From Planctomycetota bacterium (GTDB taxonomy: Bacteria > Planctomycetota > B15-G4): DNA of 64,000 nucleotides. Position numbers and translations under genes: made by a program. The DNA lies in assembly GCA_052387675.1 (NCBI GenBank), contig JBQTIY010000009.1:141804-205803 (forward strand), written 5' to 3'. Of the stretch, positions 27,263 to 58,487 are shown piece after piece. The first letter of the stretch is position 1. Each line of letters starts with the position of its first letter. Under the pieces are notes generated by a model that had not been told where the DNA came from, ran no database searches, and saw nothing but the letters and a program-made list of their open reading frames with translations.

Positions 27263-27314
27263 GAGATGACTCACCGTACCGCACGGCTCAGCGCGACCGC
27301 TACAATCCGCGCCC

Positions 27315-28841: not shown

Positions 28842-28878
28842 GGGCCCAGCCTTGGGCTCAAGGCCCGCGGCTGAGGCT

Positions 28879-40453: not shown

Positions 40454-42115
40454 ATGTTCCGCAGCACCCTCTCGCTGTCCCTGGCCCTTGCGGCCCTTTC
40501 AACCCCTCTTGCAGCCCAGGACGACCTCGGCGAGGTGCTGATCCATAAGAAGATCAGCTCGATCGACGGCACCTTCTCGGGCGGCCTCGACAACGGCGAT
40601 CTGTTCGGCGGGGCCATTGCAGCTCTCGGTGACCTCGATGGCGATGGCATCGGCGACTACGCCGTCGGCGCCATTCGCGATGACGATGGCGGCACCGATG
40701 CGGGCGCAGTTTGGATTCTCTTCCTGCGCGCCAACGGGACCGTGAAGTCTTTCCAGAAGATCAGCGCCCTAGAGGGCGGCTTGGTTGGCCCGGTAGCGGC
40801 CGGCGATGCCTTTGGCGTTTCGCTAGCTGCTTTGGGCGATTTGGATAGTGACGGCGTGCGCGACCTAGCGGTCGGTTCCTTCCTGGACGACAGCGGTGGC
40901 CCCAACCGTGGTGCGGTCTACGTTCTCTTCCTCAATGCCAACGGCACCGTCAAGGCTGAACAAAAGATCAGTTCGACGAGCGGTGGCTTGGGGACTCCGC
41001 TGGATGACGAAGATCGCTTTGGCCACGCCCTGGCCCGGCTTTCGCCCACCCGAATCGCTGTAGGAATTCTCTTCGATGATGATGGCGGCGCTGACCGTGG
41101 GGCCGTTTTGATTCTAGACCTCACCACCACGACCGGAATGGTCGCCGGTGAGGCCAAGATCAGCAGCACCGCCGGTGGCTTCGGTGGAGTCCTGGACGAC
41201 GGCGACTGGTTCGGAACAGCCTTGGCGGATGCCGGAGACATCAACGGCGACACAAACACTGACCTACTCGTGGGCGCCCGGAAGGACGATGACGGCGGCA
41301 CCGACCGTGGTGCGCTGTGGGTCCTTTTCCTCGACGCGGGAGGCGCTGTTCTCGGCCAATCAAAGATTAGTCATGGGAACGGCGGTTTCTCAGGCAGTCT
41401 GGCCAATCTCGACGCCTTTGGAACCTCCGCGGCGAAATTGGGCGAAGTCGGCGGCGACACCGTTGTGGCCGTGGGCTGCCCGTTCCAAGATGACGGTGGC
41501 ACCGACCGTGGTGCGTTGTGGCTGCTCTTCCTGGATTCGACTGGGACTTGCACGAATAGCCTCAAGATCAGCGATACCGTTGGGAACTTCGCAGGGCAAC
41601 TCGCCAACAGCGATCAGTTCGGATACGCCCTGGTTGCTCGTGACGACGCCAATGAGCAGTTCGGCTTCGCTGATCTGATCGTGGGTGCGCGTTTCGCAGA
41701 CAACGGTGGTGCCGATCGCGGCCGCGTTCACCTCTTGCGCATCAGCGAGGGCCCCTTCACCGACCTTGGAAATGGTCTGCTCGGTAGCAACGGCATGCCG
41801 GAACTCACCGGCACCGGGACCTTGGTCGCGGGCACGGCCATGTCGATCAATCTGGTCAGCGCGAAGCAGAGTGCCTCTGCCGCCTTGGTCGTCGGGATCT
41901 CGAACCTCTACGCCAACTTCAAGGGTGGCGTCATGGTGGGTGACCCCTTGATCATTTTCTCGGGCCTGACGACGACCCCCTCGGGTACGGCCACTCTGGG
42001 AACCCCCAGCTTCCCCTCGGGACTTTCGTTGTTCACCATGTACTTCCAGTACTGGATCACAGAGAGCCCGGGCGTGTTCTCTGCCAGCAACGGCTTGGCG
42101 ATGACGGCCCCCTAA
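40454..42115 (+). CDS. Secreted FG-GAP/integrin-alpha beta-propeller protein (paralog 1)
   Basis: RBS GGAGG, signal peptide, repeated FG...GDLDGDG..D.AVG..DDDGG.DRGA.W.LFL. Confidence 0.85.
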   Translation: MFRSTLSLSLALAALSTPLAAQDDLGEVLIHKKISSIDGTFSGGLDNGDLFGGAIAALGDLDGDGIGDYAVGAIRDDDGGTDAGAVWILFLRANGTVKSFQKISALEGGLVGPVAAGDAFGVSLAALGDLDSDGVRDLAVGSFLDDSGGPNRGAVYVLFLNANGTVKAEQKISSTSGGLGTPLDDEDRFGHALARLSPTRIAVGILFDDDGGADRGAVLILDLTTTTGMVAGEAKISSTAGGFGGVLDDGDWFGTALADAGDINGDTNTDLLVGARKDDDGGTDRGALWVLFLDAGGAVLGQSKISHGNGGFSGSLANLDAFGTSAAKLGEVGGDTVVAVGCPFQDDGGTDRGALWLLFLDSTGTCTNSLKISDTVGNFAGQLANSDQFGYALVARDDANEQFGFADLIVGARFADNGGADRGRVHLLRISEGPFTDLGNGLLGSNGMPELTGTGTLVAGTAMSINLVSAKQSASAALVVGISNLYANFKGGVMVGDPLIIFSGLTTTPSGTATLGTPSFPSGLSLFTMYFQYWITESPGVFSASNGLAMTAP

Positions 42116-42342: not shown

Positions 42343-44037
42343 ATGGAGAGAGACATCGTGACGATTCCCCGTGGCATCACCCGTTCCTTGCCGCTTCTCG
42401 CTGTCGGCCTGCTTACTGGAACCGTGCCCTTGATGGCGCAGTCCCTGCCCGGCGACGTGTTGACGACTAGCCGAATCAGCTCGAGCGTCGGCGGTTTCGT
42501 GAATGACCTTGGCGATGGCGACCTCTTCGGTGGCGCGGTCGCTCCCCTCGGCGATCTGGACGGAGACGGTGTCCGAGACGTCGCAGTGGGTGCCATGCGC
42601 CATGATGCCGGGGGCACGGATCGCGGAGCTGTGTGGATTCTGTTCCTCAACGCTGACGACAGCGTTAAGGCCTCCACCAAGATCAGCAGCACGTCCGGCG
42701 GCCTTGTGGGCCCGCTAGCCGATGGCGATCACTTCGGCGTTTCGCTGGCAGGCCTCGGTGACCTGGACGGCGACAACATCACTGACCTAGCCGTTGGTGC
42801 CTATCTGGCCGACCACGGCGGTGTCGATCGCGGTGCGGTTTATGTGCTCTTCCTCAATGCCAACGGAACCGTCAAGGCCGAGCAAGTCATCAGCAGCACG
42901 GCAGGAGGCTTCGGTGGCGTACTCGACAACGATGACCGCTTTGGTCTGAGCTTGGCGAATCTCTCCAATGGCCGGCTCGCCGTGGGTACGGGCTTCGATG
43001 ACGACGCCGGTCCGGACCGCGGCGCCGTGTGGCTCGTAGACCTGGCCGCCAATGGGACCGTCACCTCCTTCGGGAAGATCAGTGCGACCTCTGGTGGGTT
43101 TGGCGGCGTTCTCGATGACCAGGACTGGTTCGGGAGCGCGGTGGCCTCGGCTCGCGACCTGGATAGTGATGGTGTCATCGATCTCTTCGTGGGCGCCAGG
43201 CAGGATGACGATGGTGGTTCCAACCGCGGCGCCTTGTGGGTGCTACTCCTGAATGCCAACAAGACGGTGAAGGCCTCGACCAAGATTAGTGCGTCCAGCG
43301 GCGGATTCACCGGCGCGCTCGACAACACCGACAACTTCGGTGCCTCCGTCTGCCTCCTTGGTGACTACGACGGCGACGGCAAGCGCGATGCGGCCGTCGG
43401 AGCCTCCGGTGACGACGACGGTGGCCTAAACCGCGGCGCGGTTTGGATTCTGCACCTAGCTGCTGACGGGACCGTGCTCGGCCACAGCAAGTTGAGCAGC
43501 CAGGTTGGAAACGTTACGGGCCCCCTCGCAGACGGTGACCAGTTCGGCTACTCGATCGCGTGGCTCGACGGCAACTATGGCCTGGGCGATGCGCTGGTCG
43601 GCCAGCGTTTCGCTGACGATGGCGGCGCGGATCGTGGCGCTGTAACTTCGTTGCGCCTGAGCCATGGCATCTGGACAGACATGCGTCACTTCAAGTCGGG
43701 CAGCGCGGGCGCGCCCGTTCTGACCATGACCGGAACGCTCATCCCGGGCGCGATGGTCAACGTGGGTGTCACTGGCGCAGCCGCCTTCAAGTCCGCAATC
43801 ATTGCCATCGGACTGAATGCGACTGCTGCTCCGTTCGCCTCCGGCGTGATCGTGCCCTCTTTGGACATGCTGCTGGGCGGTTTCGCGACCACGGGCGCCG
43901 GCACCTTGTCGGTCAACGACCGCTTCCCGCCGAACCTGCCTGAGGGCTTCGTCTTCTACACCCAGGTGTGGATCCGCGATCAGGCGGCGGCCTTCGGCTT
44001 CTCCTTGACCAACGCCGTGGCGGGCGCGATGCCCTGA
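42343..44037 (+). CDS. Secreted FG-GAP/integrin-alpha beta-propeller protein (paralog 2)
   Basis: Same repeat architecture and C-terminal domain as paralog 1; exact start uncertain. Confidence 0.85.
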   Translation: MERDIVTIPRGITRSLPLLAVGLLTGTVPLMAQSLPGDVLTTSRISSSVGGFVNDLGDGDLFGGAVAPLGDLDGDGVRDVAVGAMRHDAGGTDRGAVWILFLNADDSVKASTKISSTSGGLVGPLADGDHFGVSLAGLGDLDGDNITDLAVGAYLADHGGVDRGAVYVLFLNANGTVKAEQVISSTAGGFGGVLDNDDRFGLSLANLSNGRLAVGTGFDDDAGPDRGAVWLVDLAANGTVTSFGKISATSGGFGGVLDDQDWFGSAVASARDLDSDGVIDLFVGARQDDDGGSNRGALWVLLLNANKTVKASTKISASSGGFTGALDNTDNFGASVCLLGDYDGDGKRDAAVGASGDDDGGLNRGAVWILHLAADGTVLGHSKLSSQVGNVTGPLADGDQFGYSIAWLDGNYGLGDALVGQRFADDGGADRGAVTSLRLSHGIWTDMRHFKSGSAGAPVLTMTGTLIPGAMVNVGVTGAAAFKSAIIAIGLNATAAPFASGVIVPSLDMLLGGFATTGAGTLSVNDRFPPNLPEGFVFYTQVWIRDQAAAFGFSLTNAVAGAMP

Positions 44038-44166: not shown

Positions 44167-45327
44167 GTGTCTGCGCGCATCCTGGTCAATGACCGGCCGC
44201 TCTATGTCACGACTTCGGGCGTGCCGGTTTATTTGCGCAGTCTTCTGGCGCATTGGCCCGCCGGCGGACCAGAGACCTGGGGTGTCCTTACGCATGGCTT
44301 GCGGCGGGCCGGGCACTGGCCGGCAGTGAGTGCACGGCACTCCAGCGCGCTGCGTCTCCGGCCGCTCGTGGCGCTGGGTTCGCCGAAGGCTTTGGGACGC
44401 CAAGTGCCGAACTCAGTCCGCCGCGCACTTCGTCGCGGTTACGCCTGGACAGTGCGCCGCTTGGCGCACAGCAGCAGAAGTCGCGCCTACTTCGAACCAA
44501 ATCACCTAGCAGTCGCTACCGACTTGCCCACGCTCACCGCTTTTCACGATCTGTCGGTCGTGGATCATCCAGAGTGGCACCACGCCGCCCGCGTGAAGCA
44601 GTGGGATCTCGAACTGCCCCAGACGCTGCGAGTGACGCGCCGCTGGGTGACGGCCAGCCAGTTCACTCGCGATCGCTTGGTGCAGAAACTTGGAGTCTCG
44701 CCGGAACGAATCGACGTTGTGCCGATGGCGCCGCGAGTCTTCTCCTCAGAAACCACATCTGGCAGCCGGTACGAACTTCCTGAGCGCTACTTGCTGGTCG
44801 TAGGAACGCTGGAGCCACGTAAGGGATTGCTGACGCTGCTTGATGCCTGGGCGGCGGTCCCGGACACCCGTCGCCGGAACTGTCGCCTTGTCCTCACTGG
44901 CCCCGTGGGCTGGGGCGACTCCGTCTTTTGGAACTCCCTGGTCGGACACCGAGCGGCACAGGACGTGTTAACCACTGGCTCCGTCGACGAGGCAGCGCTC
45001 GGCCAACTCCTGCGCGGGGCCGTCGCGCTGCTCAGCGCGTCGCGCTACGAGGGCTTCGGTCTGCCGCTCGTTGAGGCTTTTGCGCTCGGGACGCCCGTGA
45101 TCTGCTCAGACATTCCGACCTACCGCGAAGTGGCTGGCACGGCAGCTCTGCGCGTGCCGGCCGAGGACGAGGCGGCCTGGGCCCGGGCCATCGGGAGTGT
45201 TCTGGACGATGCAGCGTTGCGCGCAGACCTGGCTGCGGCGGGGACGCGGCAGGTCGCGGCACTGACCTGGAATCAGACGGCCGGCCGCATGGCCGAGTTG
45301 CTGACTCAGCTGGCCTCAGCGGGCTGA
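44167..45327 (+). CDS. GT4-family glycosyltransferase
   Basis: HDLS, GTLEPRKGL, YEGFGLPLVEA, SDIPTYREVAG. Confidence 0.9.
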   Translation: MSARILVNDRPLYVTTSGVPVYLRSLLAHWPAGGPETWGVLTHGLRRAGHWPAVSARHSSALRLRPLVALGSPKALGRQVPNSVRRALRRGYAWTVRRLAHSSRSRAYFEPNHLAVATDLPTLTAFHDLSVVDHPEWHHAARVKQWDLELPQTLRVTRRWVTASQFTRDRLVQKLGVSPERIDVVPMAPRVFSSETTSGSRYELPERYLLVVGTLEPRKGLLTLLDAWAAVPDTRRRNCRLVLTGPVGWGDSVFWNSLVGHRAAQDVLTTGSVDEAALGQLLRGAVALLSASRYEGFGLPLVEAFALGTPVICSDIPTYREVAGTAALRVPAEDEAAWARAIGSVLDDAALRADLAAAGTRQVAALTWNQTAGRMAELLTQLASAG

Positions 45328-46196
45328 TTTGCTCTCCGCAGCAGCCAGCGCAATTGCCAGCCCAGCATGGACAGCGGCAGCCGGCGGTTGTAGCGCCAGG
45401 CCAGGGCCAAGCCGAGCGGAGCCTTGGCTAGGCGGTTCAGGAGCCGATGCCGCGAGATGGCTAGTCCGCGCGATTCAACGAGGACATGTGCGAGATGGCG
45501 CAGCGGCTGATCGGGGACCCGGCCGAGATGTCGGCTCAGCAGTTCGACGACTTCGCGGGCATGGTCCACGGGGCGGCCCACCGATTTGCTGGCGGGGTGC
45601 AGGCGCGCGCCCGCAAGTGTCTGCGGCAGGTACTGGAAGCGGGCTCCGGCCTTCGCCAGCCGGAGCCAGTACTCGTAATCCATGCAGTAGTGCAGCGATT
45701 CGTCGAGCCCGCCCAGCTTGGTCACGAGGCGCCGCCGAAAGAAGACGGCGGGCGTGCACAGAAAACAGTGCTCGTACAGCCGTTGCGCGGAAAACGCTTC
45801 GGTTGGATAGCGTTGCAGCACGCGGTCGTGCGCATCGATGTAGTCGGCGTCGCCGTAGAGCACGTCGAGCTGCGGGTCACTGGCAAAGGCTTCGGCAATG
45901 ACGCTCAGTGTGCGGGGGTAATAGACGTCATCCGCGTTGAGCCAGCCGATGACTTCGCCCCGCGCTGCGGCCAGGGCCTTGTTCACGGCCTGTGCCTGAC
46001 CTTGGTCTGGTTCGCTCAGCGACTCGACCTGTCCGGCGTATTGCGCCAGAATCGCTTGTGTGTCGTCGCCGCTGCCTCCGTCCCGGACGACGAACTGCAG
46101 CCCCGCGAGACGCTGACCGAGCACGCTCTGTATGGCGCGTTCAATGAACTCGCCCTGCCCAAGGGAGGGCATGACGATCGTGATGCTGCAGGCCAT
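45306..46196 (-). CDS. GT2-family glycosyltransferase
   Basis: IVMPS, DGGSGD, GQAQAVN, WLNADD, MDYEYWLR. Confidence 0.9.
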   Translation of the reverse strand: MACSITIVMPSLGQGEFIERAIQSVLGQRLAGLQFVVRDGGSGDDTQAILAQYAGQVESLSEPDQGQAQAVNKALAAARGEVIGWLNADDVYYPRTLSVIAEAFASDPQLDVLYGDADYIDAHDRVLQRYPTEAFSAQRLYEHCFLCTPAVFFRRRLVTKLGGLDESLHYCMDYEYWLRLAKAGARFQYLPQTLAGARLHPASKSVGRPVDHAREVVELLSRHLGRVPDQPLRHLAHVLVESRGLAISRHRLLNRLAKAPLGLALAWRYNRRLPLSMLGWQLRWLLRRANQPAEAS

Positions 46197-46347
46197 GGAT
46201 GGTGGAGCTTCGGCGTGAGGTCTCGTGGCACTGTTGTACTCTCGGGGCTGCCGAGCGCGGCGAATTTGGCTCCGTTTCGCTAGACTGGCAGCGCGCGACC
46301 TTCGGAGCCTGTTCGTGGCAGAGAGCGGCCGCTCGCCGACACAATCC

Positions 46348-47385
46348 ATGCAGCGAGTCCGGGCCAAGCGCTGCTGGTGCGGCTCGGAGACTCTGCAGCC
46401 CTTCGCGCCCAATTACTTGCTCTGCACGGTCTGCCAGACGCTGGTGTCCGGCGCACGCCTGCCGGATGAGGCTCTGCGGGTTACGAATGATGCAGGCGAC
46501 TTTTACGGTCGTCGCTACTGGTGGGAGCACCAGACCGAGGATCTCGGCTATCCGAATCTGGAGCAGCGGGCGCGCGCCGACCTCGCCGAGCGCTGTGCGC
46601 AGTGGCTGTCGGTCCTGCTGCGCTGGCGCGCGCCGCCGGGCCGGGTGCTGGAGTTGGGATCCGCACACGGCGGCTTCGTCGCCTTGATGCGCCTGGCCGG
46701 CTTCGAGGCCACCGGGCTCGAACTGAGCCCGAGTGTCGTGACGTGGTCGCAGGTCGCCTTTGGGATTCCCGTGCTCTGCGGGCCCCTGGAGAACCAGACG
46801 ATTGCCCCGGCGTCGCTCGAGGCCATCGTGCTCATGGATGTCCTCGAGCACTTGAGTGATCCACTGGCGACGATGAAGCTGTGCCGGCGACTGCTGGCGC
46901 CCGGCGGGATCGTTCTGGCGCAAACGCCTGCTTGGCGCGGGCAAGACTACTCAGCGATGCAATCCGCTCGGGATCCCTTTCTAGAGCACTTCAAGCCTGA
47001 CGAACATCTGCATCTCTTCTCGCCTCAGGCCGCTCGCCGACTGCTGGCGGAGGCCGGACTCTCTCACGTGACTGAGGAGCCCGCGCCCTTCGTGCATGAC
47101 ATGCTCCTCGTGGCTTCAGCCGAGCCGCTGCCGACCGAGACCTCTGAGCTGACAGCAGACCGGCTGCTCAGAGCACCGGCCGGGCGCATGGCCTTGGCCT
47201 TGCTGGACGCGGGCGTCCGCAGCGACGATTTGGCGAGAGTGTGCGCAGCGCGACAGAGGGTTATCGAGGAGCAGCAGCAGGAGATCGAGCTGCTTCGGCA
47301 GGCCTGCGCCGAGCGGCTGGCCCTCATTGAGGCGCAAGAGCGGGAACTCGGGCCTCTGCGGCGGGGCGCCGGCAGGTCAGAATGA
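46348..47385 (+). CDS. Class I SAM-dependent methyltransferase with Cys-rich N-terminus and short C-terminal coiled coil
   Basis: CWC..CTVC; VLELGSAHG, DVLEHLSDP, EHLHLFS. Confidence 0.85.
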   Translation: MQRVRAKRCWCGSETLQPFAPNYLLCTVCQTLVSGARLPDEALRVTNDAGDFYGRRYWWEHQTEDLGYPNLEQRARADLAERCAQWLSVLLRWRAPPGRVLELGSAHGGFVALMRLAGFEATGLELSPSVVTWSQVAFGIPVLCGPLENQTIAPASLEAIVLMDVLEHLSDPLATMKLCRRLLAPGGIVLAQTPAWRGQDYSAMQSARDPFLEHFKPDEHLHLFSPQAARRLLAEAGLSHVTEEPAPFVHDMLLVASAEPLPTETSELTADRLLRAPAGRMALALLDAGVRSDDLARVCAARQRVIEEQQQEIELLRQACAERLALIEAQERELGPLRRGAGRSE

Positions 47386-47410
47386 ATCGGTACGCCTGGA
47401 TCGCCTGACG

Positions 47411-50400
47411 ATGCACACCTTTCTCGTGAACCTGCTGACTCTCGACCCCGGCCGTAATGGCGGTGTCGCGCGCGTCGCGGCAGTGGTGGGGCGGCATCTC
47501 GCTCGCACAGCACGCCGGGGTCGCGCTCGCGTGGTGTTTGCCGTGAGCTACGAGTTCGCCGAGCGCTTTCCGGCCTGGCTTGGCGAAACGGGTGGCGTGG
47601 TGCTGCCGTGCCCGGCGTCCGCCGCGGCCGCGGAGCTTCTGGCGCCCTTGCGGCCAGACGTGATTGTCAGTCCGCTCTTCGGCGGCGAGCCCTTCTTGGG
47701 AGTTCACGCTTTGCAGGGCGCGAGGCACGTGGCCTTCATGCCGGATGCCCTGGCCCTGGATCGGCCCGAGCTGTTGCCCGTCGCCGAAGTTGCCCGGCGC
47801 GAGGCCGCGTACCAGGGCCTGCGGCAGGTCGACTGCGTCATCACGTCGTCTCGATTCTCTCGCGCGCGTCTCATCGCGCACTTGGGCTTGCCGAGTTCGA
47901 GGGTCCGGGTGGTCTCGCTCGGTGGTGACGGACTTTCAACTGCAGCCGCCGAGCAGCCCCTGCCCGCCGGGCTGCAGCGGCCCTTTCTGCTCTATCCCGC
48001 CAATCGCTGGCTCCACAAGCGCCACGCTCTGGCCGTGGCCACCATGGAGCGCATCTGGCAGCGCCGGCCCGAACTGCAGCTCGCCGTGACCGGGTCTATC
48101 GATTCGGGCTTGGTCGAGAGACTCGCGGGCGTAGCCGGCGGGGCGCTCTCGCGCGACGAGCGGATCGTGGACCTCGGCTTCGTGTCCGACGGCGAACTGG
48201 ACGCCCTCTATCGCAACGCCGAAGCGCTGCTGTTCTGTTCGGACTACGAGGGCTTTGGCATGCCCGTGGTCGAGGCCATGCAGCGAGGATGTCCGGTGAT
48301 CTGCTCGCGGGCAGGCTCTTTGCCTGAGGTCGCGGGACATGCGGCGCTGTACTCCGAGAGCGACGATCCCGAAGCGTGGGCGCGGCTCGTGCTTCGCGAA
48401 CTGCCGCGACGGCGCAACGCACTGATCAAGCGCGGGCTCGTTCAAGCGCGCTCCTTCACGTGGGAGCACACCTGGCGTGGCTGGCGTAAGGCCTTGACGT
48501 CCGTTGTTGGCAGGACGGCCCTGCAAGGCCGTGCCACCGCAGCTCAGGGTGCGGGCCTGGAACCACAGATCCTTCTCGATTGGGTGCAGCGGCAGCGGGC
48601 CTTGAACGAAGAGTTGGTGGCCAAAGAGCGGGTGATCCAAGAACTGAAGCGGACCGATGCCGACCTTGCGCGCGAGCTGGCCATCAGCAAGGCCACGGCT
48701 CAGGCCGAGGCCTCGGCTCGGGAGCAACTGCAAGGGGAACTCGCTGCGCGTGAGTCTGCTCTCGCCTCGACGCTGAAGGAGTTGAGTGAGCAGCGCGAAG
48801 AGCTCGTTCAGCAGCAGCATGGACTCGAAGCCAAAGAAGCGGTCATCCAGGGGCAGATCCTGGCCACTCAGCAGCTCGAGGCGGAGCGCTTGGCGCTGCG
48901 CGATGAGCTCCAGGTCCGCCAGGCCGCCTGGGAGTCGCAGCAGCTTGAAGAGAAGCGAAAGTCCGCCGCGCTGCAGAGTGAAGTCGCGCAGCAGCAGGAG
49001 GCCTTGCGCGTTGCGCGGGAGCAGCTCGCCGCTGGGGAAGAGCGCGTCAGCCTGCTGCGCGCGGATCGGCTGCTGGCCTTGGAAGCACTGGAAGCCGCGA
49101 GCGGTCGACTCGAAGCCCGCGAGCAGGAGTTAGCGGCTGCGCAGGCGCGGCTCGCCGGAACGGAAGCGGCGCTGGCCGCTGAAACCGTGGCATTGACGGA
49201 AGCGAAACGAGCGGCCCAGCTTCAGGAGACGCGCCTTGAGGCCCTGCGCACCGCAGGCCGTCAAGAGCGAACCGAGTTGCAGGATCGCTTGGCCGCTGAC
49301 GCCAAGCTGCGCCTCGAGCTCGAAACGCAGCGCAGTCGCCTCGAGCAAGAGGCCGCGCGGTTGCGGGTCTCACTGTCCGAAACAGAAACCCGGCTGACCG
49401 CGGCCAGAGCCTCGCTGTCCGGTCTGACCGACGCGTTGGCTGCGGTCCGCCAGGAACTCGCCCAGGCCCAGGCTTCCGCGCAGTCCGAGGCTGCTGGCTG
49501 GGCTCGGCGCGTGGCGGCTCAGCAGCAGGAACTCGGAGGCCTGCAGGCTCAGCTCGTGCACGCAGAGGAGCTGGCGCACTTGCGCGCTGCCGAACAGCAG
49601 AGGCTATCGGCCGAAGTCACCCGCGGCCAGGAGCAGTTGGCCCGCAAGCATGAGGAGCTGGCCCGGCTGCGCGGCTCGCTGGCCGATGCCCACCGCCTGC
49701 GCGAATCGCTCGAGCAACGGCTGGTCGAAGCTTCCGAGACAGAGCGCGCAGCCGCAGCGGAGCGCGAGGAACTCGAAGCCGAGCTGGGCCAAGTGCGGGG
49801 CTCGCTGGCCGCCGTGGAGAACAGGCTTCAAGAGCGCGAGCGTGATCTCGCGACTCGTGACGATTCCTTGCGCTCGCAGCGCCAGGAACTGCGCGCCCGC
49901 GAAAGCACGATTACCGCGCAACTTCGGGAACTCGCCCAGCGCGACGACGATCTCGCCCAACTGCGCCAGGAGTTGGCGGCCGCTGCTGAGTCCGTGCTGG
50001 AACGTGATCGCGCCCTGGGCGGGCGCGATCGCACGATCGCCGAGCGCGACGGCGCACTGGCCGCGCGTGCCGAGGAGCTCGCCGAGCGCGATCGGCGCCT
50101 CGATGGCCAGATGGGCGAGCTCATCGCCAAGGAGGCGGTGATTCAGGACCTGCTGCGCTATCGTTCCTGGTCGTTGCGCTGGTGGTGGATCTCGCGTGTT
50201 GGTCCGGCCACGGGCCTGCCGCTGGCCTTCCGGACTGTGCAGAAAGTGCGTGAGCGGGCTGCCGATGCCGTGGCGCCGCGCCTCGGGACGCTTTACCAGT
50301 ACCCGCCGGTGCCGCTGCGCGTTCCGCGCCGCTACCAGCCGTCAGTGCCGCCCAGCACCGCTCTGCCTTCGATCTCGCTTGTGACACCCTCCTTCAATCA

Positions 50401-51145
50401 AGCGGCCTTTCTGGAGCGCACGATCCGCAGCGTGGCGGGACAGGACTATGCCGACCTGCAATACATCGTCCAGGATGGCGGCTCCACGGACGGGACGGCT
50501 GACGTCTTGAAGCGCTACGCGCACCAAATGACCGATGCCTTCAGCCGCAAAGACCGCGGTCAGTCGCACGCCATCAATCTGGGCTTCGAGCAGACTTCGG
50601 GCGAAATCATGGCCTGGCTGAACTCCGACGACATCCTGCTGCCCGGCACTCTGCGCTACGTCGCCGAGTACTTCACGGCTCACCCCGACGTGGATGTGGT
50701 CTACGGCCACCGCGTGCTCATCGATGAGCACGATGGAGAGATCGGGCGCTGGGTCCTGCCTCCGCACGATCAGGACGTGCTGAGCTGGGCCGACTACGTG
50801 CCCCAAGAAACACTTTTCTGGCGCCGCACGGCCTGGGACCGCGCCGGCGGCTCGATCGACGAGAGCTTCCAGTTCGCCATGGATTGGGACCTGCTGCTGC
50901 GGCTGCGCGGCTCCGGCGCGAGCATGGTGCGCTTGCCGCGCTTTCTTGCGGCTTTCCGCGTGCATTCGGCCCAGAAGACTTCGGCGCGCATCAATGACCT
51001 CGGAGCGCGCGAGATGACGCGTCTGCGCGAGCGCAGCCTCGGCCGGCCCGTGAGCCATGAGGAGATCATGGAGCACGTCCGTCCGTACCTCAGCCGGTCG
51101 GTCCTGTACCACCAGCTTTGGCGCCTCGGCATGGTGCGCTACTGA
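47411..51145 (+). CDS. Multidomain glycosyltransferase: GT4 - long coiled coil - GT2
   Basis: LLYPANRWLHKRH, YEGFGMPVVEAM; about 530-aa heptad region; ISLVTPSFNQ, DGGSTD, WLNSDD. Confidence 0.88.
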   Translation: MHTFLVNLLTLDPGRNGGVARVAAVVGRHLARTARRGRARVVFAVSYEFAERFPAWLGETGGVVLPCPASAAAAELLAPLRPDVIVSPLFGGEPFLGVHALQGARHVAFMPDALALDRPELLPVAEVARREAAYQGLRQVDCVITSSRFSRARLIAHLGLPSSRVRVVSLGGDGLSTAAAEQPLPAGLQRPFLLYPANRWLHKRHALAVATMERIWQRRPELQLAVTGSIDSGLVERLAGVAGGALSRDERIVDLGFVSDGELDALYRNAEALLFCSDYEGFGMPVVEAMQRGCPVICSRAGSLPEVAGHAALYSESDDPEAWARLVLRELPRRRNALIKRGLVQARSFTWEHTWRGWRKALTSVVGRTALQGRATAAQGAGLEPQILLDWVQRQRALNEELVAKERVIQELKRTDADLARELAISKATAQAEASAREQLQGELAARESALASTLKELSEQREELVQQQHGLEAKEAVIQGQILATQQLEAERLALRDELQVRQAAWESQQLEEKRKSAALQSEVAQQQEALRVAREQLAAGEERVSLLRADRLLALEALEAASGRLEAREQELAAAQARLAGTEAALAAETVALTEAKRAAQLQETRLEALRTAGRQERTELQDRLAADAKLRLELETQRSRLEQEAARLRVSLSETETRLTAARASLSGLTDALAAVRQELAQAQASAQSEAAGWARRVAAQQQELGGLQAQLVHAEELAHLRAAEQQRLSAEVTRGQEQLARKHEELARLRGSLADAHRLRESLEQRLVEASETERAAAAEREELEAELGQVRGSLAAVENRLQERERDLATRDDSLRSQRQELRARESTITAQLRELAQRDDDLAQLRQELAAAAESVLERDRALGGRDRTIAERDGALAARAEELAERDRRLDGQMGELIAKEAVIQDLLRYRSWSLRWWWISRVGPATGLPLAFRTVQKVRERAADAVAPRLGTLYQYPPVPLRVPRRYQPSVPPSTALPSISLVTPSFNQAAFLERTIRSVAGQDYADLQYIVQDGGSTDGTADVLKRYAHQMTDAFSRKDRGQSHAINLGFEQTSGEIMAWLNSDDILLPGTLRYVAEYFTAHPDVDVVYGHRVLIDEHDGEIGRWVLPPHDQDVLSWADYVPQETLFWRRTAWDRAGGSIDESFQFAMDWDLLLRLRGSGASMVRLPRFLAAFRVHSAQKTSARINDLGAREMTRLRERSLGRPVSHEEIMEHVRPYLSRSVLYHQLWRLGMVRY

Positions 51146-52029
51146 TGGCCGCCGAGCGCGGCGCCGCGCCACTGCCGGTGACGATCATCCGCGCCGAGCC
51201 GCAGGGTGGCGCATGGCGGCACGCGCTGCCGTGGCGAGCTGCCGCGGCCCTCTGGCGCCACCGTGATCTCACGGCGCAGCTCGTGCGCCGCGACCTGCGC
51301 GCCCGCTACGTCGGCACTTCGCTCGGCTGGCTCTGGCTGGTGCTCGATCCGCTCTTCATGCTGGCGCTCTACACGCTGGTCTTCTCGGTAGTCTTCGAGG
51401 CGCGCTGGGGGCATCCAGCAGACTCCGACTGGCCCGGCTTTGCGCTGACCCTGGCGGCCGGCCTCGTGGCCTTCGATTGGCTGGCCAACAGCCTGACGCG
51501 CGCCGTGGGGCTCATCGCGGGTGCGCGCACGCTCATTCGACGCGAACGCTTCCCGGCCGAATCGTTGGCCTTGTCCGTGGCGCTGGGCGCGGGAGTGCAC
51601 GCGGCCGTCCAGCTCGGCGTGTTGCTCGCGGTCACGGTGCTATTCGGTCACGGGCTCTCGTGGCAGATCCTCTGGCTGCCTTTTGTGGTGCTGCCGCTGC
51701 TGCTCCTTGTCGTGGGGCTGACCTGGTTTGTGGCAGCCGAGAGCGTGTTCTCTCCGGACTTGGCACAGGCCGTGCCGTTCGCGCTGCGCCTACTGCTGTG
51801 GGGCACGCCCATCCTGTACCCGGCTGCGCTGCTGCCCGCCGCTCTGCAGCCGCTGGTCACCCTGAATCCGCTGCACGTGATCGTCGAGAACCTGCGCCGC
51901 ATCACACTCTGGGATCAGCCGCCGCAGTTCTCGGCGCTGCTGATCATCACGGGCCTGGCGCTGGCCGTGGCCTCGGCGAGCTACGCCTACTTCCTGCACC
52001 GCCAACGGTCCTTCGGTGATGTCGTCTGA
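51145..52029 (+). CDS. wzm: Polysaccharide ABC exporter permease
   Basis: RDLRARYVGTSLGWLW, TPILYP, LNPL, C-terminal FGDVV. Confidence 0.9.
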   Translation: MAAERGAAPLPVTIIRAEPQGGAWRHALPWRAAAALWRHRDLTAQLVRRDLRARYVGTSLGWLWLVLDPLFMLALYTLVFSVVFEARWGHPADSDWPGFALTLAAGLVAFDWLANSLTRAVGLIAGARTLIRRERFPAESLALSVALGAGVHAAVQLGVLLAVTVLFGHGLSWQILWLPFVVLPLLLLVVGLTWFVAAESVFSPDLAQAVPFALRLLLWGTPILYPAALLPAALQPLVTLNPLHVIVENLRRITLWDQPPQFSALLIITGLALAVASASYAYFLHRQRSFGDVV

Positions 52030-53422
52030 GCGGGGGCAGCGTGCCGGGTTGGCACGCATCGAGGTGCGCGGGATCGGCAAGCGCTATCGCTTGAAGTCTG
52101 GCGGAGCGAGCGCGCACGGCTCCACGGCACCGGTGAACGCGCCCCACGTTGCGCCGGCTGTGCATGACTTCTGGGCACTGCGCGGCGTCAACTTCGAGGT
52201 GGGCCCCGGCGAGGTCTTTGGTGTCATCGGCCGCAACGGTTCCGGGAAGAGCACGCTCCTGCAGATTCTGGCCGGCATCCTGCCGCCGAGTGAGGGCGAG
52301 GCGGTGCTGCGCGGGCGGCTGGGCACCATGCTCGAACTGGGCAGCGGCTTTGACCCTGAGGAAACCGGGCGCCAAGGCGTCTTCCTCAAGGGCGCGCTGC
52401 TCGGCTTGCCGCGCCGGGAGATCGAGGAGCAGTTCGATCGGATCCTGGCCTTTGCCGAACTCGGCAGCTTCATCGATCAGCCGGTGCGCACCTACTCCAG
52501 CGGCATGCTCATGCGGCTGGCCTTCGCCGTGACGACCTGCCTCGACGTGGACATCCTGCTCGTGGACGAAGTCCTGGCAGTCGGCGATGTCTTTTTCCGC
52601 CAGAAGTGCCACGCGCGGCTGCGCGAACTCTTGGAGCGCGGCACGAGCGTGATCCTCGTGAGCCATGCCATGGACGAGGTTGCACAGCTTTGCCAGCGAG
52701 TGCTCGTGCTCGGGCACGGCCAGCCGGTCTTTCTGGGTCCGGCGCCCGAGGCCGTGCAGCGCTACTTCCTCCTGCGTGCGGCGCGGCCGCCCGAGCCAGA
52801 CGCCACGGCTGCGGAGGCCGCGTCGGCCGCCGTCGAGCAGGGTCTCACGCTGAACGAGCCGACCCCGGAGGCCGCCTTTGACCTAAGCGGCCGCGTGCAA
52901 GTGGGGGACGGCAGCGCCCGCTGTCGGCTCGTGGCGCTCAGTGATGTGCAGGGCCGGGCCTGCCGCAGCTTTGCTCAGGGCGATTCTGCGGTCATCGACT
53001 GCGAGTTCGAGATCCTGCGTCCGCTCGAAGTGCCCGTCTCGGGAGTGCTTCTGCGGGATGAGCGCGGGGCCGTCGTGCATGGCAAGACCACGCTGCAACT
53101 GGAAGCCGCCGTGCCGCGCCGTGTTTCCGAGCGGAGTGTGCTGCGCGTCCGTCAGATCGTGCAACTCCATCTGGCCGCGGGGGAGTACAGCCTCGACGTG
53201 GGACTCTCTTCGCTCTCCTTGGCAGCGCATGCACAGCGCAGCGCCTGGACGCAGGAAGAACTGGCCGAGCAGATCACCCGCCGCTGCCATGTTGCGGGGG
53301 TCGGTCATTTTGCGGTCCTGCGCCGCGCCACCGGCGGAGAGGGCGTGCAGCTTCCGCACCACGGACTTGTGAACCTGCCGGGCGAGGCGGTCGTCGTCGT
53401 GCGTGCCGAGCGCGCTCAGTGA
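52019..53422 (+). CDS. wzt: Polysaccharide ABC exporter ATPase with Wzt C-terminal carbohydrate-binding domain
   Basis: FWAL, GRNGSGKST, YSSGM, VDEVLAVGD..F..KC, VSH; beta-rich C-terminal extension (LAAGEYSLDVG). Confidence 0.92.
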   Translation: MSSERGQRAGLARIEVRGIGKRYRLKSGGASAHGSTAPVNAPHVAPAVHDFWALRGVNFEVGPGEVFGVIGRNGSGKSTLLQILAGILPPSEGEAVLRGRLGTMLELGSGFDPEETGRQGVFLKGALLGLPRREIEEQFDRILAFAELGSFIDQPVRTYSSGMLMRLAFAVTTCLDVDILLVDEVLAVGDVFFRQKCHARLRELLERGTSVILVSHAMDEVAQLCQRVLVLGHGQPVFLGPAPEAVQRYFLLRAARPPEPDATAAEAASAAVEQGLTLNEPTPEAAFDLSGRVQVGDGSARCRLVALSDVQGRACRSFAQGDSAVIDCEFEILRPLEVPVSGVLLRDERGAVVHGKTTLQLEAAVPRRVSERSVLRVRQIVQLHLAAGEYSLDVGLSSLSLAAHAQRSAWTQEELAEQITRRCHVAGVGHFAVLRRATGGEGVQLPHHGLVNLPGEAVVVVRAERAQ

Positions 53423-54144
53423 CTTCCGCCGGAACAACGCTGCTGCATGTCACGCATTGGAAGGCTGGCTCGCAGTGGATCTACGCCATCCTGCGCGCCT
53501 GTGCCGGCGAGCGAGTGGTGACACCCCAGTTGGGCGTCGCGCATGTGCTGGGCGCCGCCTTGCAGCCTGGGCGCATCTATCCCACGGCCTATCTCACCCG
53601 CCAGCAGTTCCTGCAGCTGGAGCGACCCGCCGGCACGCAGCATTTTCTCGTGTTCAGAGACCTGCGCGACACGCTGGTGTCGGGCTACTTCAGCATGCGC
53701 CACAGCCACCCTGAAATCAGTCCGCGGGTGACGAGCCTGCGTTCGCGACTCAGTGCCTGCGATCTGCCCGCGGGCTTGCGACTCCTCATGCAGGAATGGC
53801 TGCCCCTGAGTGCCGCGGTGCAGCGTTCATGGCTGGCTGCCGCCGAGCCCTTCTTGCGTTACGAGGACTTGCTCTCGAACGACGTCGAACTGCTCGAGGC
53901 CACACTGTTGGATCGCTGTGGCCTCGACGTGCCACGTGAGCACCTGCGCCAAGCCGTCCTCGCCAACCGCTTCGAAGCACGCACCGGGCGTCGTCCCGGC
54001 GAGGAGCGTCTCGACGCGCACGAGCGACTGGGCGTGGCCGGCGATTGGCGCCGCCACTTCGACGCGGGTCTCAAGGCGGACTTCAACGAAAGCTTTGGGG
54101 ACCTGCTCATCGCGTCGGGCTACGAAACCAGCCATGACTGGTGA
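53419..54144 (+). CDS. Sulfotransferase-domain protein
   Basis: 5'-PSB-like THWKAGSQW, 3'-PB RDLRDTLVS, YEDL, RLGVAGDWRRHF. Confidence 0.8.
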   Translation: MTSAGTTLLHVTHWKAGSQWIYAILRACAGERVVTPQLGVAHVLGAALQPGRIYPTAYLTRQQFLQLERPAGTQHFLVFRDLRDTLVSGYFSMRHSHPEISPRVTSLRSRLSACDLPAGLRLLMQEWLPLSAAVQRSWLAAAEPFLRYEDLLSNDVELLEATLLDRCGLDVPREHLRQAVLANRFEARTGRRPGEERLDAHERLGVAGDWRRHFDAGLKADFNESFGDLLIASGYETSHDW

Positions 54145-54949
54145 TCGGACGGCCTCCGCTGGACCCGCGCGCGCCGACGCGACACCGCCGAATCTGCGCT
54201 TGATCGTCGCGGAGTACCCCAAGTCGGGAGGCGTCTGGCTGGTGAGCCTGCTGGGTGACGCGCTGCACCTGCCGAAGCGCGACATCTACACCGACGATTC
54301 CTGGGACCAGTACGACCTGACGAACCATCCCTGGTATGAGGGTGCATCCAGCCTCGGCCTGCCGCCGGCTTGCGTGATCAAGAGTCATGAGCTGCCCGGG
54401 TCGAAGCTGCACGAGTTTGCGCCACGCTCGCGCTCATCGCTGCAGGTGGAGCAACGTGAACTCCATCTGCTCCGTGACGGCCGCGACGTCATCGTCTCAA
54501 AGTACTTCTTCGAGACGGAGTTCTGCGCCCGGAATGGGCTGCCCTCAGCGCATGCGCGCCCCTTCGACGACTATGTGCTGAGTGAGGCGACCCGCTGGCG
54601 CGATTACGTCACGGCCTGGCTCGCGGCCGGGACCGACTTTGTGCGTTACGAAGATCTGCTGGCGGATCCAGCCGGCCGGCTGGCCACGCTCTGTGCGAGC
54701 CTTGCTCATCCGTTGAGCGAGGCGCGCATCGCGGCGGCCGTGGCCGGCAATACGCGCGCCCGGCTGCACGCTGCGCTCGGGCGCGTTTTCCAGCACAACA
54801 CCTTCGTGCGCCGCGGCGTGGCCGGCGACTGGAAGCGGCACTTCAGTTCACGACAGGCGGACAGTTTCTGGGAGTTGGCTGGCGGGCTGCTCGAGCGGCT
54901 GGGCTATCCGCGCGCAGGTCTGCAGGTCGATCCAGGTCCGGAGCGATGA
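54134..54949 (+). CDS. Sulfotransferase-domain protein
   Basis: EYPKSGGVWL, IKSH, RDGRDVIVS, RYEDL, RRGVAGDWK. Confidence 0.85.
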   Translation: MTGDRTASAGPARADATPPNLRLIVAEYPKSGGVWLVSLLGDALHLPKRDIYTDDSWDQYDLTNHPWYEGASSLGLPPACVIKSHELPGSKLHEFAPRSRSSLQVEQRELHLLRDGRDVIVSKYFFETEFCARNGLPSAHARPFDDYVLSEATRWRDYVTAWLAAGTDFVRYEDLLADPAGRLATLCASLAHPLSEARIAAAVAGNTRARLHAALGRVFQHNTFVRRGVAGDWKRHFSSRQADSFWELAGGLLERLGYPRAGLQVDPGPER

Positions 54950-55866: not shown

Positions 55867-55996
55867 TGGTAGGATTCACGAGCGTGATGTGTGTTGCCGA
55901 AGCTGATCGGAACCCGAAGGAAGGCGTCGCGGAATGAGCACTTCCGAGGCCGACGCCAGGCAGCCCTTGCGCCGCGGTCTGCATCCGGGCGGAGCC

Positions 55997-56851
55997 ATGG
56001 CGCCGTCCATCGAGACGGCTGCGGCGACCCTGCCCCGTTGCCTTGAACTGGCCAGCACACTGCGCCGCTGGATCATCGAGCAGTCGCTCGACTCGCGCGT
56101 TGGGCACATCGGCTCGGCGCTGTCCATTGCCGACATCATGGCCGTGCTTTGGGAAGGTGTGCTGCGCGACGCAGGGACGACGGCGCCGCACCGGGATCGC
56201 TTTGTGCTTGGCAAGGGACACGCCGCCCTGGCGCTCTATGGAGTCCTGCGCTGGAAGGGCCTGCTGAGCGAGGAGGTCTTCCGCACCTACTGCGCGGACA
56301 ACTCCTTGCTTGGCGTGCACCCGGAGCATGCTCTGCCGGGTGTGGATCTCTCGACCGGATCACTCGGGCAGGGCTTGTCGGTTGCGTGTGGACTCGCGCT
56401 GGGTCTGCGCCTGCGCAATTCTCCGGGCCGAGTGCACGCTCTGCTCTCGGATGCCGAGTGCAACGAAGGACAAGTCTGGGAGGCGGCGGCCTTCGCCGGT
56501 CACCACCGCCTCGACAACCTGACCGTCGTCGTCGACCTCAACGGCCTGCAAGCGCTGGGTCACACGCGAGACGTGCTCAACCAAACGCGACTCGCTCAAG
56601 TGTGGGCCTCCTTCCACTGGGAGACCGTGGAAGTCGACGGGCATTCTTGCGACGCGCTGCTCTCGGCCTATCGGCGGCCACAGGCCGGCCAGCCGCGCGT
56701 CCTCATCGCGCGCACGGTGCTCGGCAAGGGTGTCTCCTTCATGGAGGACCGCCTCGAGTGGCACTACCGCAACCTGACGCCGGAGACGGCCCGCGCGGCG
56801 CTCGATGAATTGAGCGGTGCCGCGCACAACGGCAGGGGCCGCAGCGGATGA
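55997..56851 (+). CDS. Transketolase N-terminal (TPP-binding) subunit
   Basis: GHIGSALS, RDRFVLGKGH, STGSLGQG, SDAECNEG..WEA, GKG. Confidence 0.9.
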   Translation: MAPSIETAAATLPRCLELASTLRRWIIEQSLDSRVGHIGSALSIADIMAVLWEGVLRDAGTTAPHRDRFVLGKGHAALALYGVLRWKGLLSEEVFRTYCADNSLLGVHPEHALPGVDLSTGSLGQGLSVACGLALGLRLRNSPGRVHALLSDAECNEGQVWEAAAFAGHHRLDNLTVVVDLNGLQALGHTRDVLNQTRLAQVWASFHWETVEVDGHSCDALLSAYRRPQAGQPRVLIARTVLGKGVSFMEDRLEWHYRNLTPETARAALDELSGAAHNGRGRSG

Positions 56852-57774
56852 GAACCGCACTCATCGAGACACTCTGTGAGCTGGCTGCTGAGGACGAGCG
56901 GATCATGCTGCTCACCGCCGACTTGGGCTGGTCCGTGGTCGAACCGTTTCGGGAGCGTTTTCCCCGGCGCTTCCTGAACGTGGGGGTCGCGGAGGCCAAC
57001 ATGATGGGAGTGGCCACAGGCCTGGCCCAGCTTGGATACGTGCCCTTCGTCTACTCGATTGCGACCTTCGCCTCGATGCGCGGATACGAGCAACTGCGCG
57101 ACGGGCCCATCTTGCATCAGCTTCCGGTGCGAGTGATCGGTATCGGCGGCGGCTTCGCCTACGGACATGCCGGGCCGACGCATCACGCACTCGAAGATCT
57201 GTGCATCGGCCGGGCACAACCGGGTCTCACGGTGCTGGCACCGGCCGACCCGGCTCAGACGCGCACCATCTTGCGCGAGACCGCGTCGTTGCCTGGCCCG
57301 GCGTACTTCCGCATCGGCAAGGGCGGCAATGCCGAGGTGCCCGGGCTGCAGGGCCGCTTCGCGCTGAATCGCCCCGAGCTCGTGCGCGAGGGCGAGGACG
57401 TGCTCTTCCTCACCGTGGGTTCGATCGCGCACGAGGCTCTGGACGCGGCGAAGCTGCTGGCGGCCAGCGGCCATTCGGCTGCGGTGGCTGTCCTGGCGCA
57501 CCTCCCGCACCAGTCCTCGGCAGCTCTGGCCGAATTGCTGGCCGACTATGCGCTGGTGGTCTCGGTGGAGGAAGGCTTCGCAGCCGGCGGGCTGGGCTCG
57601 CTGACAGCGGAGACCATTGCCGAGAACGGACTCTCCTGCCGACTCGCCATCCGAGCCGTGCGCCGCAACTTCGCCGGCGCTTCGGGCAGCGAACGCTGGA
57701 TGCGCGCGCAGCACGGGCTCGATGCCGCCTCTCTGGTGGCTGCCGTCGAGCAGTTGGCTAACGCCAAGGCGTGA
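56848..57774 (+). CDS. Transketolase C-terminal subunit
   Basis: TADLG, NVGVAEANM, GPTHH, VEE..GGLG. Confidence 0.9.
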   Translation: MRTALIETLCELAAEDERIMLLTADLGWSVVEPFRERFPRRFLNVGVAEANMMGVATGLAQLGYVPFVYSIATFASMRGYEQLRDGPILHQLPVRVIGIGGGFAYGHAGPTHHALEDLCIGRAQPGLTVLAPADPAQTRTILRETASLPGPAYFRIGKGGNAEVPGLQGRFALNRPELVREGEDVLFLTVGSIAHEALDAAKLLAASGHSAAVAVLAHLPHQSSAALAELLADYALVVSVEEGFAAGGLGSLTAETIAENGLSCRLAIRAVRRNFAGASGSERWMRAQHGLDAASLVAAVEQLANAKA

Positions 57775-58487
57775 GCACGTCCGACGGCGTCGCGCTGCTG
57801 TCGGTGGTCCTGCCCTGTCGAAATCAAGCCGACCACATCGCAGCCGTGCTGGAGCGCTACCGCGCTCCGCTGGAAGGCCGCGGGCGTCCTTACGAACTCG
57901 TCGTGGTGCCGAATGCGTGTACGGACCGCACTGCGGACGTTGTGCGTGCGCTGGCCCAGCGCTGGGAGGCCGTGCGAGTCATCGAGAGCCAACGCGGGGG
58001 CTGGGGGCTTGCCGTGAAACTCGGCTTGGCGGCTGCTCGCGGCACGACGCTCTGCTACACCAACTCGGCTCGCACGGATCCGCTGCAGCTTGTGCGACTG
58101 CTGGAAACCTACGAGTCCCGGCAGCCGTGCCTGGCCAAGGTGCGGCGTGTGCGCCGCGGAGTCCTTGCGCGTGAACTCGGTTCGTGGCTCTACAACCTCG
58201 AGGGACGGACGCTGCTCGGAATCGGCGCGCGCGACGTGAACGGCACTCCCAAGATCCTCTCGCGGGATGTCTGGCAACGGGTCCAACTCACGGAGGAGGG
58301 GGATCTCATCGACATGGAACTGCTGGCCAAGGTCTCGCGGCTCGGGCTGCCCGTCGTTGAACTGGAAGTGGAGGGCTTTACGCGGCACGGTGGCCGCTCC
58401 AGCACGAATCTGCGAAGTGCCTTGAACATGTACCTGGGTGCGCTGCGGTTGCGTCGCCAGCTCAAGAACTTCACGGCGGCCGCATGA
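57771..58487 (+). CDS. GT2-family glycosyltransferase (DPM/ArnC-like)
   Basis: LSVVLPCRN, NACTDRT, GWGLAVKLG, DVNGTPK, DMELL. Confidence 0.8.
   Translation: MSTSDGVALLSVVLPCRNQADHIAAVLERYRAPLEGRGRPYELVVVPNACTDRTADVVRALAQRWEAVRVIESQRGGWGLAVKLGLAAARGTTLCYTNSARTDPLQLVRLLETYESRQPCLAKVRRVRRGVLARELGSWLYNLEGRTLLGIGARDVNGTPKILSRDVWQRVQLTEEGDLIDMELLAKVSRLGLPVVELEVEGFTRHGGRSSTNLRSALNMYLGALRLRRQLKNFTAAA

Follow-up and report, generated by a model that had tools for sequence, protein, structure and literature searches.

In a window of 64,000 nucleotides (nt) from a Planctomycetota bacterium (the whole stretch of DNA analysed; GenBank assembly GCA_052387675.1, contig JBQTIY010000009.1, positions 141,804 to 205,803 of the forward strand), the gene at 47411-51145 on the + strand encodes a protein of 1244 amino acids (aa), hereafter P0002, in which a family 4 glycosyltransferase (GT4) domain and a family 2 (GT2) module are separated by a coiled coil of 531 aa. 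The gene lies directly upstream of an ATP-binding cassette (ABC) glycan exporter, and we favour, at slightly better than even confidence, the reading that P0002 acts both as scaffold and as ruler in the making of a long surface glycan whose chains are capped and probably methylated and sulfated. Control of polysaccharide length by a coiled-coil ruler has been established in no more than a handful of enterobacterial O antigens. P0002 and its orthologous cassettes, in which the same enzymes occur with coils of about 45 to 531 aa, provide a natural length series in which the ruler model could be tested outside the Enterobacteria and at four times the coil length of WbdD; the locus also places a large, uncharacterised coil-GT2 family in ABC-transporter glycan assembly.

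The gene was delimited from its open reading frame (ORF), translation, Pfam matches and the N-termini of orthologs. A single frame is open from 47327 to 51145 (+), and the ATG at 47411 was taken as the start, since the N-terminal residues MHTFLVNLLTLDPGRNGG of P0002 agree with those of the orthologs. Residues 1-380 (nt 47411-48550, +) constitute the GT4 domain, in which Pfam recognises Glyco_transf_4 (aa 17-171) followed by Glycos_transf_1 (aa 187-329; E 2.6e-20; 73.1 bits, cut-off 26.4) and is 42-51% identical over its full length in 11 orthologs. The sequence EGFGMPVVE at aa 280-288 conforms to EX7E, the signature of GT4 enzymes. With this motif and the above-cut-off Pfam match, the N-terminal domain is a predicted CAZy GT4 (retaining GT-B) enzyme. 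Similarly, the C-terminal module (aa 956-1244; nt 50276-51142, +) matches Glycos_transf_2 at aa 989-1112 (E 6.9e-24; 85.1 bits, cut-off 23.3), with Glyco_tranf_2_3 reaching aa 1179, and carries the motifs YQYPP, TPSFNQ, DGGSTD, NSDD, PQET and DWDLLLR, of which DGGSTD, NSDD and DWDLLLR are invariant columns in the family alignment A1. The Pfam match and the Asp-rich donor/metal motifs together make this a predicted CAZy GT2 (inverting GT-A) module. Between aa 400 and 930, Pfam returned nothing except a sub-threshold match to RNase_Y_N (aa 780-857; 20.1 bits, where the cut-off is 32), and no NCBIfam model attained its cut-off; the precomputed annotation on P0002 is PF27881. Directly after the coil lies a Trp/Arg-rich segment, RYRSWSLRWWWISR (aa 916-929; nt 50156-50197, +), which has aromatic-rich counterparts in homologs and for which the calculated Wimley-White interfacial energy sums to approximately -6 kcal/mol per 18-residue window; it is likely a membrane-association element. 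The arrangement of GT4, coil and GT2, with a Trp/Arg patch between coil and GT2, is as the original prediction, made from the DNA letters alone, had described it.

The coiled coil occupies aa 386-916 (nt 48566-50158, +, close to the 48570-50160 predicted earlier) and was defined by composition, heptad score, register analysis and the helices of AlphaFold2 (AF2) models. The residues A, L, E, R and Q account for 72% of aa 381-935, and proline is absent from aa 386-931 (546 aa), compared with approximately 6% in the flanks. The heptad register score lies at z = 7.8 relative to 200 composition-preserving shuffles, and one heptad core position is 81% hydrophobic (Leu in 46 of 80). Because this periodicity is held over 531 aa, the sequence appears to be under structural constraint. 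Viterbi decoding of the register gives runs of 116, 13, 132, 46, 224 and 15 aa, and the register shifts between them fall at aa 502, 515, 647, 693 and 917. Those at aa 647 and 693 go from c to g, and we read them as stutters, a kind of discontinuity that is tolerated in long coiled coils. The only obvious candidates for hinges are two Gly-Gly pairs, at aa 709-710 and 870-871. If the coil were straight, its length would be 78.9 nm (531 aa, 0.1485 nm per residue). In being heptad-periodic and proline-free over 531 aa and helical in the AF2 models, the segment has the predicted properties of the coiled coil of a capped-glycan ruler. As for its origin, Tandem Repeats Finder and a direct-repeat search revealed no duplication in the coil DNA beyond two repeats (a 20-nt motif present in triplicate, and a 21-nt period occurring three times at 50037-50102), and composition-corrected BLASTP searches with the coil as query detected no similarity, either within the coil or to 120 family proteins; on these searches, a recent tandem duplication and acquisition of the coil from another family member were both rejected.

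The genomic context argues for a function in glycan assembly. The P0002 gene belongs to a tightly packed + strand operon comprising a methyltransferase, P0002, Wzm, Wzt and sulfotransferase-like ORFs, followed by further members described below. Wzm (ABC-2 permease; 51118-52029, +) was identified by Pfam ABC2_membrane, with the NCBIfam KpsM and galactan Wzm models related at scores below their cut-offs. Wzt (52016-53422, +) is an ABC_tran ATPase whose C-terminus bears the carbohydrate-binding domain Wzt_C (aa 296-399, E 7.3e-13; 49.2 bits, cut-off 30.4), and its closest solved relative is chain 8dku_A (E 3e-62), deposited as 'ABC transporter', which we take to be Aquifex aeolicus Wzt. Since P0002 lies directly upstream of Wzm and of a Wzt with a Wzt_C domain, the ABC-dependent, capped-glycan, ruler context is real, and the setting assumed in the original prediction is present at the locus. 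Upstream of P0002, an S-adenosylmethionine (SAM)-dependent methyltransferase (Methyltransf_23; 46348-47385, +, with 46348 as its probable start), recognised by Pfam, translation and motif scans, ends in a short C-terminal coiled-coil tail. Its orthologs (46-52% identity) are located directly upstream of the GT4-coil-GT2 orthologs and retain the tail; this methyltransferase is a candidate capping enzyme. The genome, a high-GC draft of 3.39 Mb in 22 contigs, encodes LpxC and nine Wzy_C-type proteins, which points to a diderm with lipopolysaccharide (LPS). The LpxC match itself (G000:C6:85920-86732, -) is contained in a 474-aa open frame that may be an LpxC-FabZ-type fusion.

A very large family, with at least 5,273 cluster representatives at E <= 1e-30, is defined by the last ~345 aa of P0002, in which the pre-GT2 helix is followed by the aromatic segment and then by the GT2 core. 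Among these, the 150 best by GT2 similarity, which made up the listed set of the module search, all have E < 1e-102 and 35-64% identity, with the module nearly always at the C-terminus, and a genome scan recovered at least 583 relatives across Proteobacteria, Myxococcota, Chloroflexota, Planctomycetota, Actinomycetota, Cyanobacteria, Bacteroidota and others. The family signature, derived from the consensus of alignment A1 and from inspection by eye of roughly half of 270 sequences, consists of a KExVI-type helix, an aromatic segment, PRLG..YPP, TPSxNQ, NSDD, PQET(L/M)FW and DWDLLLR, and P0002 conforms to it. Full-length relatives were drawn from proteins of 684-2177 aa, with 120 of 286 matches listed. 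By Pfam count, the N-terminal partner among 119 listed relatives is a GT4 in 30, an FkbM methyltransferase in 27, a carbamoyltransferase in 14, a SAM methyltransferase in 8, a sulfotransferase in 8, a GT9 in 2 and a pyruvyl transferase in 1, and is unrecognised in 29; the coil-GT2 module also exists as a stand-alone protein. Judged by these domain matches, most N-terminal partners appear to be capping-type enzymes, and GT4 holds the same position. A Wzt-type ATPase is encoded within 10 kb in at least 37 of 79 family loci and Wzm in at least 17 of 79, many of the contigs being short. In the plasmid collection, the 14 matches are each annotated merely as glycosyltransferase, and a full-text literature search returned no title or opening abstract pointing to the coil-GT2 family or its motif, although an earlier description of either, or of coils of similar length, is possible.

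No feature of these proteins varies more across the family than the length of the coil. In 251 relatives the coil ranges from 0 to 426 aa (median 79, 90th percentile 190), with five relatives at 300 aa or more, and in the 79 genome loci the maximum is 224 aa, so that the coil of P0002 is the longest in both samples; the very long coil claimed at the outset is thus exceptional by this comparison. The 11 true orthologs, whose GT4 similarity extends over the full domain, are 764-862 aa long and have coils of 45-122 aa. Among the syntenic loci, L029, from a Chloroflexota metagenome-assembled genome, contains a Wzt with its carbohydrate-binding module (CBM), four sulfotransferase-like paralogs, the methyltransferase (46% identity), the GT4-coil-GT2 protein and a GT2 paralog; L043 contains the methyltransferase (52% identity) followed by GT4-coil-GT2; and L023 contains Wzm, Wzt-CBM, GT4-coil-GT2 and the GT2 paralog. 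The coils in these three cassettes measure 56-171 aa. Since the syntenic cassettes keep the enzymes, the enzymes are conserved while the spacer ranges about tenfold.

A short motif marks both ends of the coil. The pattern AKE.VIQ occurs exactly three times in P0002: AKERVIQ at aa 404 (nt 48620-48640, +), 18 aa inside the coil at the GT4 end; AKEAVIQ at aa 474 (nt 48830-48850, +); and AKEAVIQ at aa 906 (nt 50126-50146, +), within the family-wide pre-GT2 helix of consensus KExVI. The three copies noted in the original prediction were therefore recovered, 9 nt from where it had placed them. In orthologs the motif stands directly behind GT4 and directly ahead of GT2, and throughout the family the aromatic segment is preceded by a helix of KExVI or ARLxVIEEQ type; AKExVIQ is a coil signature, 14 residues long, that the whole family shares. 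The coil of the short ortholog P0003 is in essence three tandem copies of the motif, and since the bookends are kept in P0002, its long coil looks like an insertion between conserved bookends.

The motif is also found outside the scaffold protein. The ~45-aa coiled tail of the upstream methyltransferase contains RQRVIEEQ (nt 47251) and ERLALIEAQ (nt 47314). In the same genome, 13 matches to the strict motif pattern were obtained in 17,705 six-frame ORFs, P0002 and this methyltransferase accounting for four of them, and a looser coil-internal pattern had no match in 3.15 M residues outside the cluster. The looser pattern was written after the GT2 pre-helices and three methyltransferase tails had been inspected, and ORFs here are stop-to-stop frames rather than gene calls. 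In the non-GT2 ORFs of the 79 loci it gave 28 matches, 24 of which lie within 60 aa of the ORF end and come from 15 loci; the mirror-image control pattern gave a single match in the same loci and none at a C-terminus. The 17 tail-bearing neighbour ORFs comprise 7 FkbM methyltransferases, 3 SAM methyltransferases (one ORF being both), 5 sulfotransferases, 2 GSCFA proteins and 1 GT4. Enzymes of these classes occur elsewhere as fusions with coil-GT2, which speaks for docking by a Rosetta-stone argument, and the presence of the motif on free-standing neighbours, including the methyltransferase of this operon, suggests that they dock. The motif may in this way explain how separate capping enzymes are recruited, with a possible use in engineering glycan chain length and end-group chemistry. 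The tails of these neighbours are tandem 14-residue CxERLxLIxxL coils, for example L038:7201-9023, L081:8225-9169 and L045:14297-18799.

A bolder proposal, which we regard as tentative and rather doubtful, is that the heptad pair (KExVIxxL or CxERLxLIxxL) serves as a portable coiled-coil address tag that docks capping and decorating enzymes onto coil-GT2 scaffolds, so that a single rod of ~79 nm would be a programmable multi-enzyme ruler. The users of the tag may be SAM and FkbM methyltransferases, sulfotransferases, GSCFA proteins and GT4s, and an ancestral tandem array appears to have been split in P0002 by ~56 aa and ~418 aa of inserted coil. Were this true, docking stations would lie ~3 nm and ~13 nm from the GT4 end, with a third at the membrane end, and enzymes would be held at set distances along one rod.

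P0002 was then compared with characterised ruler systems. In such systems, terminators are found at a coiled-coil ruler's distal end, and the coiled-coil protein is a membrane-associated scaffold (PMC11231755). WbbB of Klebsiella pneumoniae O12 and Raoultella terrigena is, like P0002, one polypeptide with an N-terminal GT, a central coil and C-terminal GT(s) in a Wzm/Wzt-CBM system; its terminating GT is N-terminal, and its coil is followed by two polymerase GTs (PMC11231755), whereas P0002 has one GT2 module. In addition, the N-terminus of P0002 is a GT4 rather than a β-Kdo (3-deoxy-D-manno-oct-2-ulosonic acid) transferase fold, and its system has a separate tail-bearing methyltransferase. 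The 29 PDB sequence matches of P0002 included no WbbB chain, and by sequence P0002 is not a member of the WbbB family. The N-terminal β-Kdo transferase domain of WbbB is classed as GT99. WbdD (Escherichia coli O9a; K. pneumoniae O3 and O5) shares with P0002 a coil, which is a ruler in WbdD, followed by an amphipathic region that associates with the membrane in WbdD and probably does so in P0002, as well as a Wzt CBM, and its capping methyltransferase sits at the coil's distal end, where it adds the cap that the Wzt CBM reads. Deletions in the WbdD coil shorten and insertions lengthen the modal chain (PMC6286764); this coil measures ~200 Å, compared with up to ~790 Å, or up to four times as much, in P0002. 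On the other hand, WbdD has no GT and recruits WbdA, whereas P0002 carries GTs itself, and the methyltransferase here is a separate protein whose coil is merely ~45 aa.

Two further systems are relevant. Klebsiella pneumoniae O7 ORF6, compared by its description, consists of a methyltransferase-kinase-CBM part, a coil and two GT2 modules (PMC11231755); it resembles P0002 in the order of N-terminal enzyme part, coil and GT2, and differs in the N-terminal enzymes, which P0002 replaces with a GT4, and in the second GT2 module. In E. coli O101/O162, a free-standing methyltransferase with a C-terminal coil has been proposed to assemble with membrane GTs into a complex (PMC13168486). The methyltransferase upstream of P0002 is similar to it; however, the methyltransferase coil is the proposed ruler in O101/O162, whereas in the present locus it is the GT protein that has the long coil, the tail of the methyltransferase being short. 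A domain arrangement unlike the characterised examples had been predicted. The layout of capping-type enzyme, coil and GT2 is already characterised in O7 ORF6 and WbbB and is very common in databases, so that what is unusual in P0002 is the GT4/GT2 pairing and the coil length only. Some distant GT4-coil-GT2 relatives (P0016-P0018 and P0020, the last in L043) have an extra, apparently β-rich domain of ~130 aa between coil and GT2, which recalls the CBM reported for O7 ORF6 (PMC11231755).

Based on these comparisons, the following mechanism is proposed. P0002 would be a membrane-anchored scaffold and ruler of Wzm/Wzt-CBM polysaccharide assembly in a diderm, LPS-making bacterium. Its GT2 module would be kept at the membrane by the Trp/Arg segment and act on the lipid-linked chain, probably aided by a coil-less GT2 paralog and a stand-alone GT4 encoded nearby. 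The coil would homo-oligomerise into a long rod, up to ~79 nm if straight, that holds the GT4, which we infer to be a terminator rather than a polymerase, far from the membrane; the upstream methyltransferase would probably be held distally too, docked through its coiled-coil tail. A terminal cap would then be given only to chains that reach the distal enzymes and be recognised by the carbohydrate-binding module of Wzt, leading to export, and an unusually long coil would produce an unusually long modal chain. The single-protein polymerase/terminator originally envisaged is too simple for this locus, where a tailed methyltransferase, conserved in the orthologous cassettes, lies upstream and the GT2 paralog and second GT4 are adjacent.

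Several observations weigh against this ruler. Its function is a prediction from genes, and an ortholog of P0002 was found in none of 40 related genomes, which leaves no within-lineage comparison. An identity of ~60% across phyla, as seen for the GT2 module, is odd for a polymerase of variable glycans. All coil lengths, for P0002 and its relatives, derive from an in-house, crude heptad score rather than a published predictor; the second heptad core position is merely 53% hydrophobic; and the five register shifts and two Gly-Gly pairs mean that the 'uninterrupted heptad-rich helix' of the original prediction holds as heptad-rich, not as uninterrupted. The straightness of the rod is made doubtful by the Gly-Gly sites and by one of two AF2 monomer models (aa 371-960, built from a single sequence, and aa 430-709). 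The 590-aa model (pLDDT, the predicted local distance difference test, 67.8; pTM, the predicted template modelling score, 0.22) has helices at aa 385-546, 550-709, 713-866 and 875-930 and is broken at aa 547-549, 710-712 and 867-874, giving three helices of ~160 aa that are compatible with a bundle. The predicted span of ~80 nm is therefore matched by the 78.9 nm calculated for a continuous coil and is less secure as a real distance.

These breaks raise an alternative within the same system, namely that the coil is hinged or folded back, one form of this being three helices of ~160 aa that run antiparallel, with joints at aa ~548, 709-710 and 870-871, in which case the effective distance from GT4 to the membrane would be ~24-32 nm, like that of WbdD and unexceptional. 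The only two Gly-Gly pairs in the coil sit exactly at two of the AF2 breaks, and the three parts into which the breaks split the coil are nearly equal in length (162, 160 and 154 aa). We nevertheless consider this arrangement unlikely. The model that suggests it is a single-sequence one of low pTM, the heptad register shifts do not coincide with its break positions, and the 546 aa without proline contain no loop-like stretch. When aa 430-709 was folded alone, one helix was obtained at aa 431-708 (mean pLDDT 85.2, exceeding 90 across aa 547-549), and since the break at aa 547-549 is gone in this construct, it came from model geometry and not from the sequence. Structure prediction thus supports a continuous helix for aa 431-708; both Gly-Gly breaks lie beyond this part of the coil and remain a point in favour of hinges. 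Foldseek of the coil model against the PDB returned no bundle-like match, just one meaningless row (E 9.6), and is uninformative on this question.

A second alternative is that the coil is a mere oligomerisation or scaffold element, that GT4 and GT2 together form the polymerase, and that chain length is set by the kinetics of methyltransferase capping or by transporter stoichiometry, with the extra coil length representing neutral drift of low-complexity sequence. A further observation adverse to the ruler enters here: 8 of the 119 listed relatives are GT4-GT2 proteins without a coil, so that the two domains could work side by side as a bifunctional polymerase (P0019, P0021-P0024 and P0026 are relatives of this kind with no detectable coil). 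The simple composition of the P0002 coil and its lack of detectable homology to other long family coils are likewise compatible with drift. However, two sites tens of nm apart would be awkward for alternating catalysis, drift does not readily account for a heptad periodicity maintained over the whole coil or for motif bookends retained at both ends with the insertion in between, and the N-terminal position is occupied across the family mostly by non-GT capping enzymes. On balance, we judge this explanation improbable. An artefactual origin of the long ORF, through assembly or annotation (such as a chimeric join or collapsed repeat in a metagenome-assembled genome), is very hard to sustain, since, although the draft of 22 contigs is 89.9% complete, the gene is internal to a 362-kb contig, its coil DNA has no long repeats prone to misassembly, its frame is open with a codon-position GC bias like that of its neighbours, and both termini are orthologous to the same proteins.

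Other genes around P0002 are consistent with a dedicated glycan cluster. The stand-alone, coil-less GT2 paralog (45306-46412, -, probably starting at an internal Met near nt 46196) is 38% identical to the GT2 module, and equivalent paralogs are present in the syntenic loci L029 and L023. The second, stand-alone GT4 (44167-45327, +) was recognised by Pfam. Downstream of Wzt, two sulfotransferase-like ORFs (Pfam Sulfotransfer_1) lie at 53419-54144 (+) and 53810-54949 (+, start uncertain); homologs of the first occur in 14 of the 79 loci, and the four copies in L029 are of this type. Another sulfotransferase-family ORF is found at the edge of the cluster (window 62669-63589, -), and together with the two after Wzt it points to a sulfated product. 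The further operon members are an ORF without recognised identity, a split transketolase (55934-57774, +) in which the N-terminal part precedes the pyrimidine-binding and C-terminal parts, a short GT2 and a DUF4915/TIGR03032 protein (58484-59737, +). The transketolase and the DUF4915/TIGR03032 protein are hints of an unusual or branched sugar precursor. The short GT2 (57771-58487, +) resembles polyprenyl-phosphate sugar synthases and lies near a PMT_2 (GT-C) membrane protein (59703-61745, -), a pairing reminiscent of extracytoplasmic side-chain sugar addition (cf. PMC11127046, by its title).

The cluster may be of foreign origin. Third-position GC is 0.76-0.86 in the cluster genes (35895-62676), compared with mostly 0.80-0.95 in the flanking housekeeping genes, and this lower value, together with the missing orthologs in the 40 related genomes, suggests that the glycan cluster was horizontally acquired. 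Just upstream of the cluster, two tandem FG-GAP repeat proteins of 564 aa each are encoded at 40421-42115 and 42343-44037 (+). Elsewhere in the window, one 665-aa frame (32090-34087, -) joins an HD + HD_assoc phosphohydrolase, RNase III and a dsRNA-binding motif, an unusual fusion if it is a single gene, and frames of 1024, 416 and 556 aa (15435-18509, +; 26198-28970, -) show a coding-like GC bias and have no Pfam match at E <= 1e-5.

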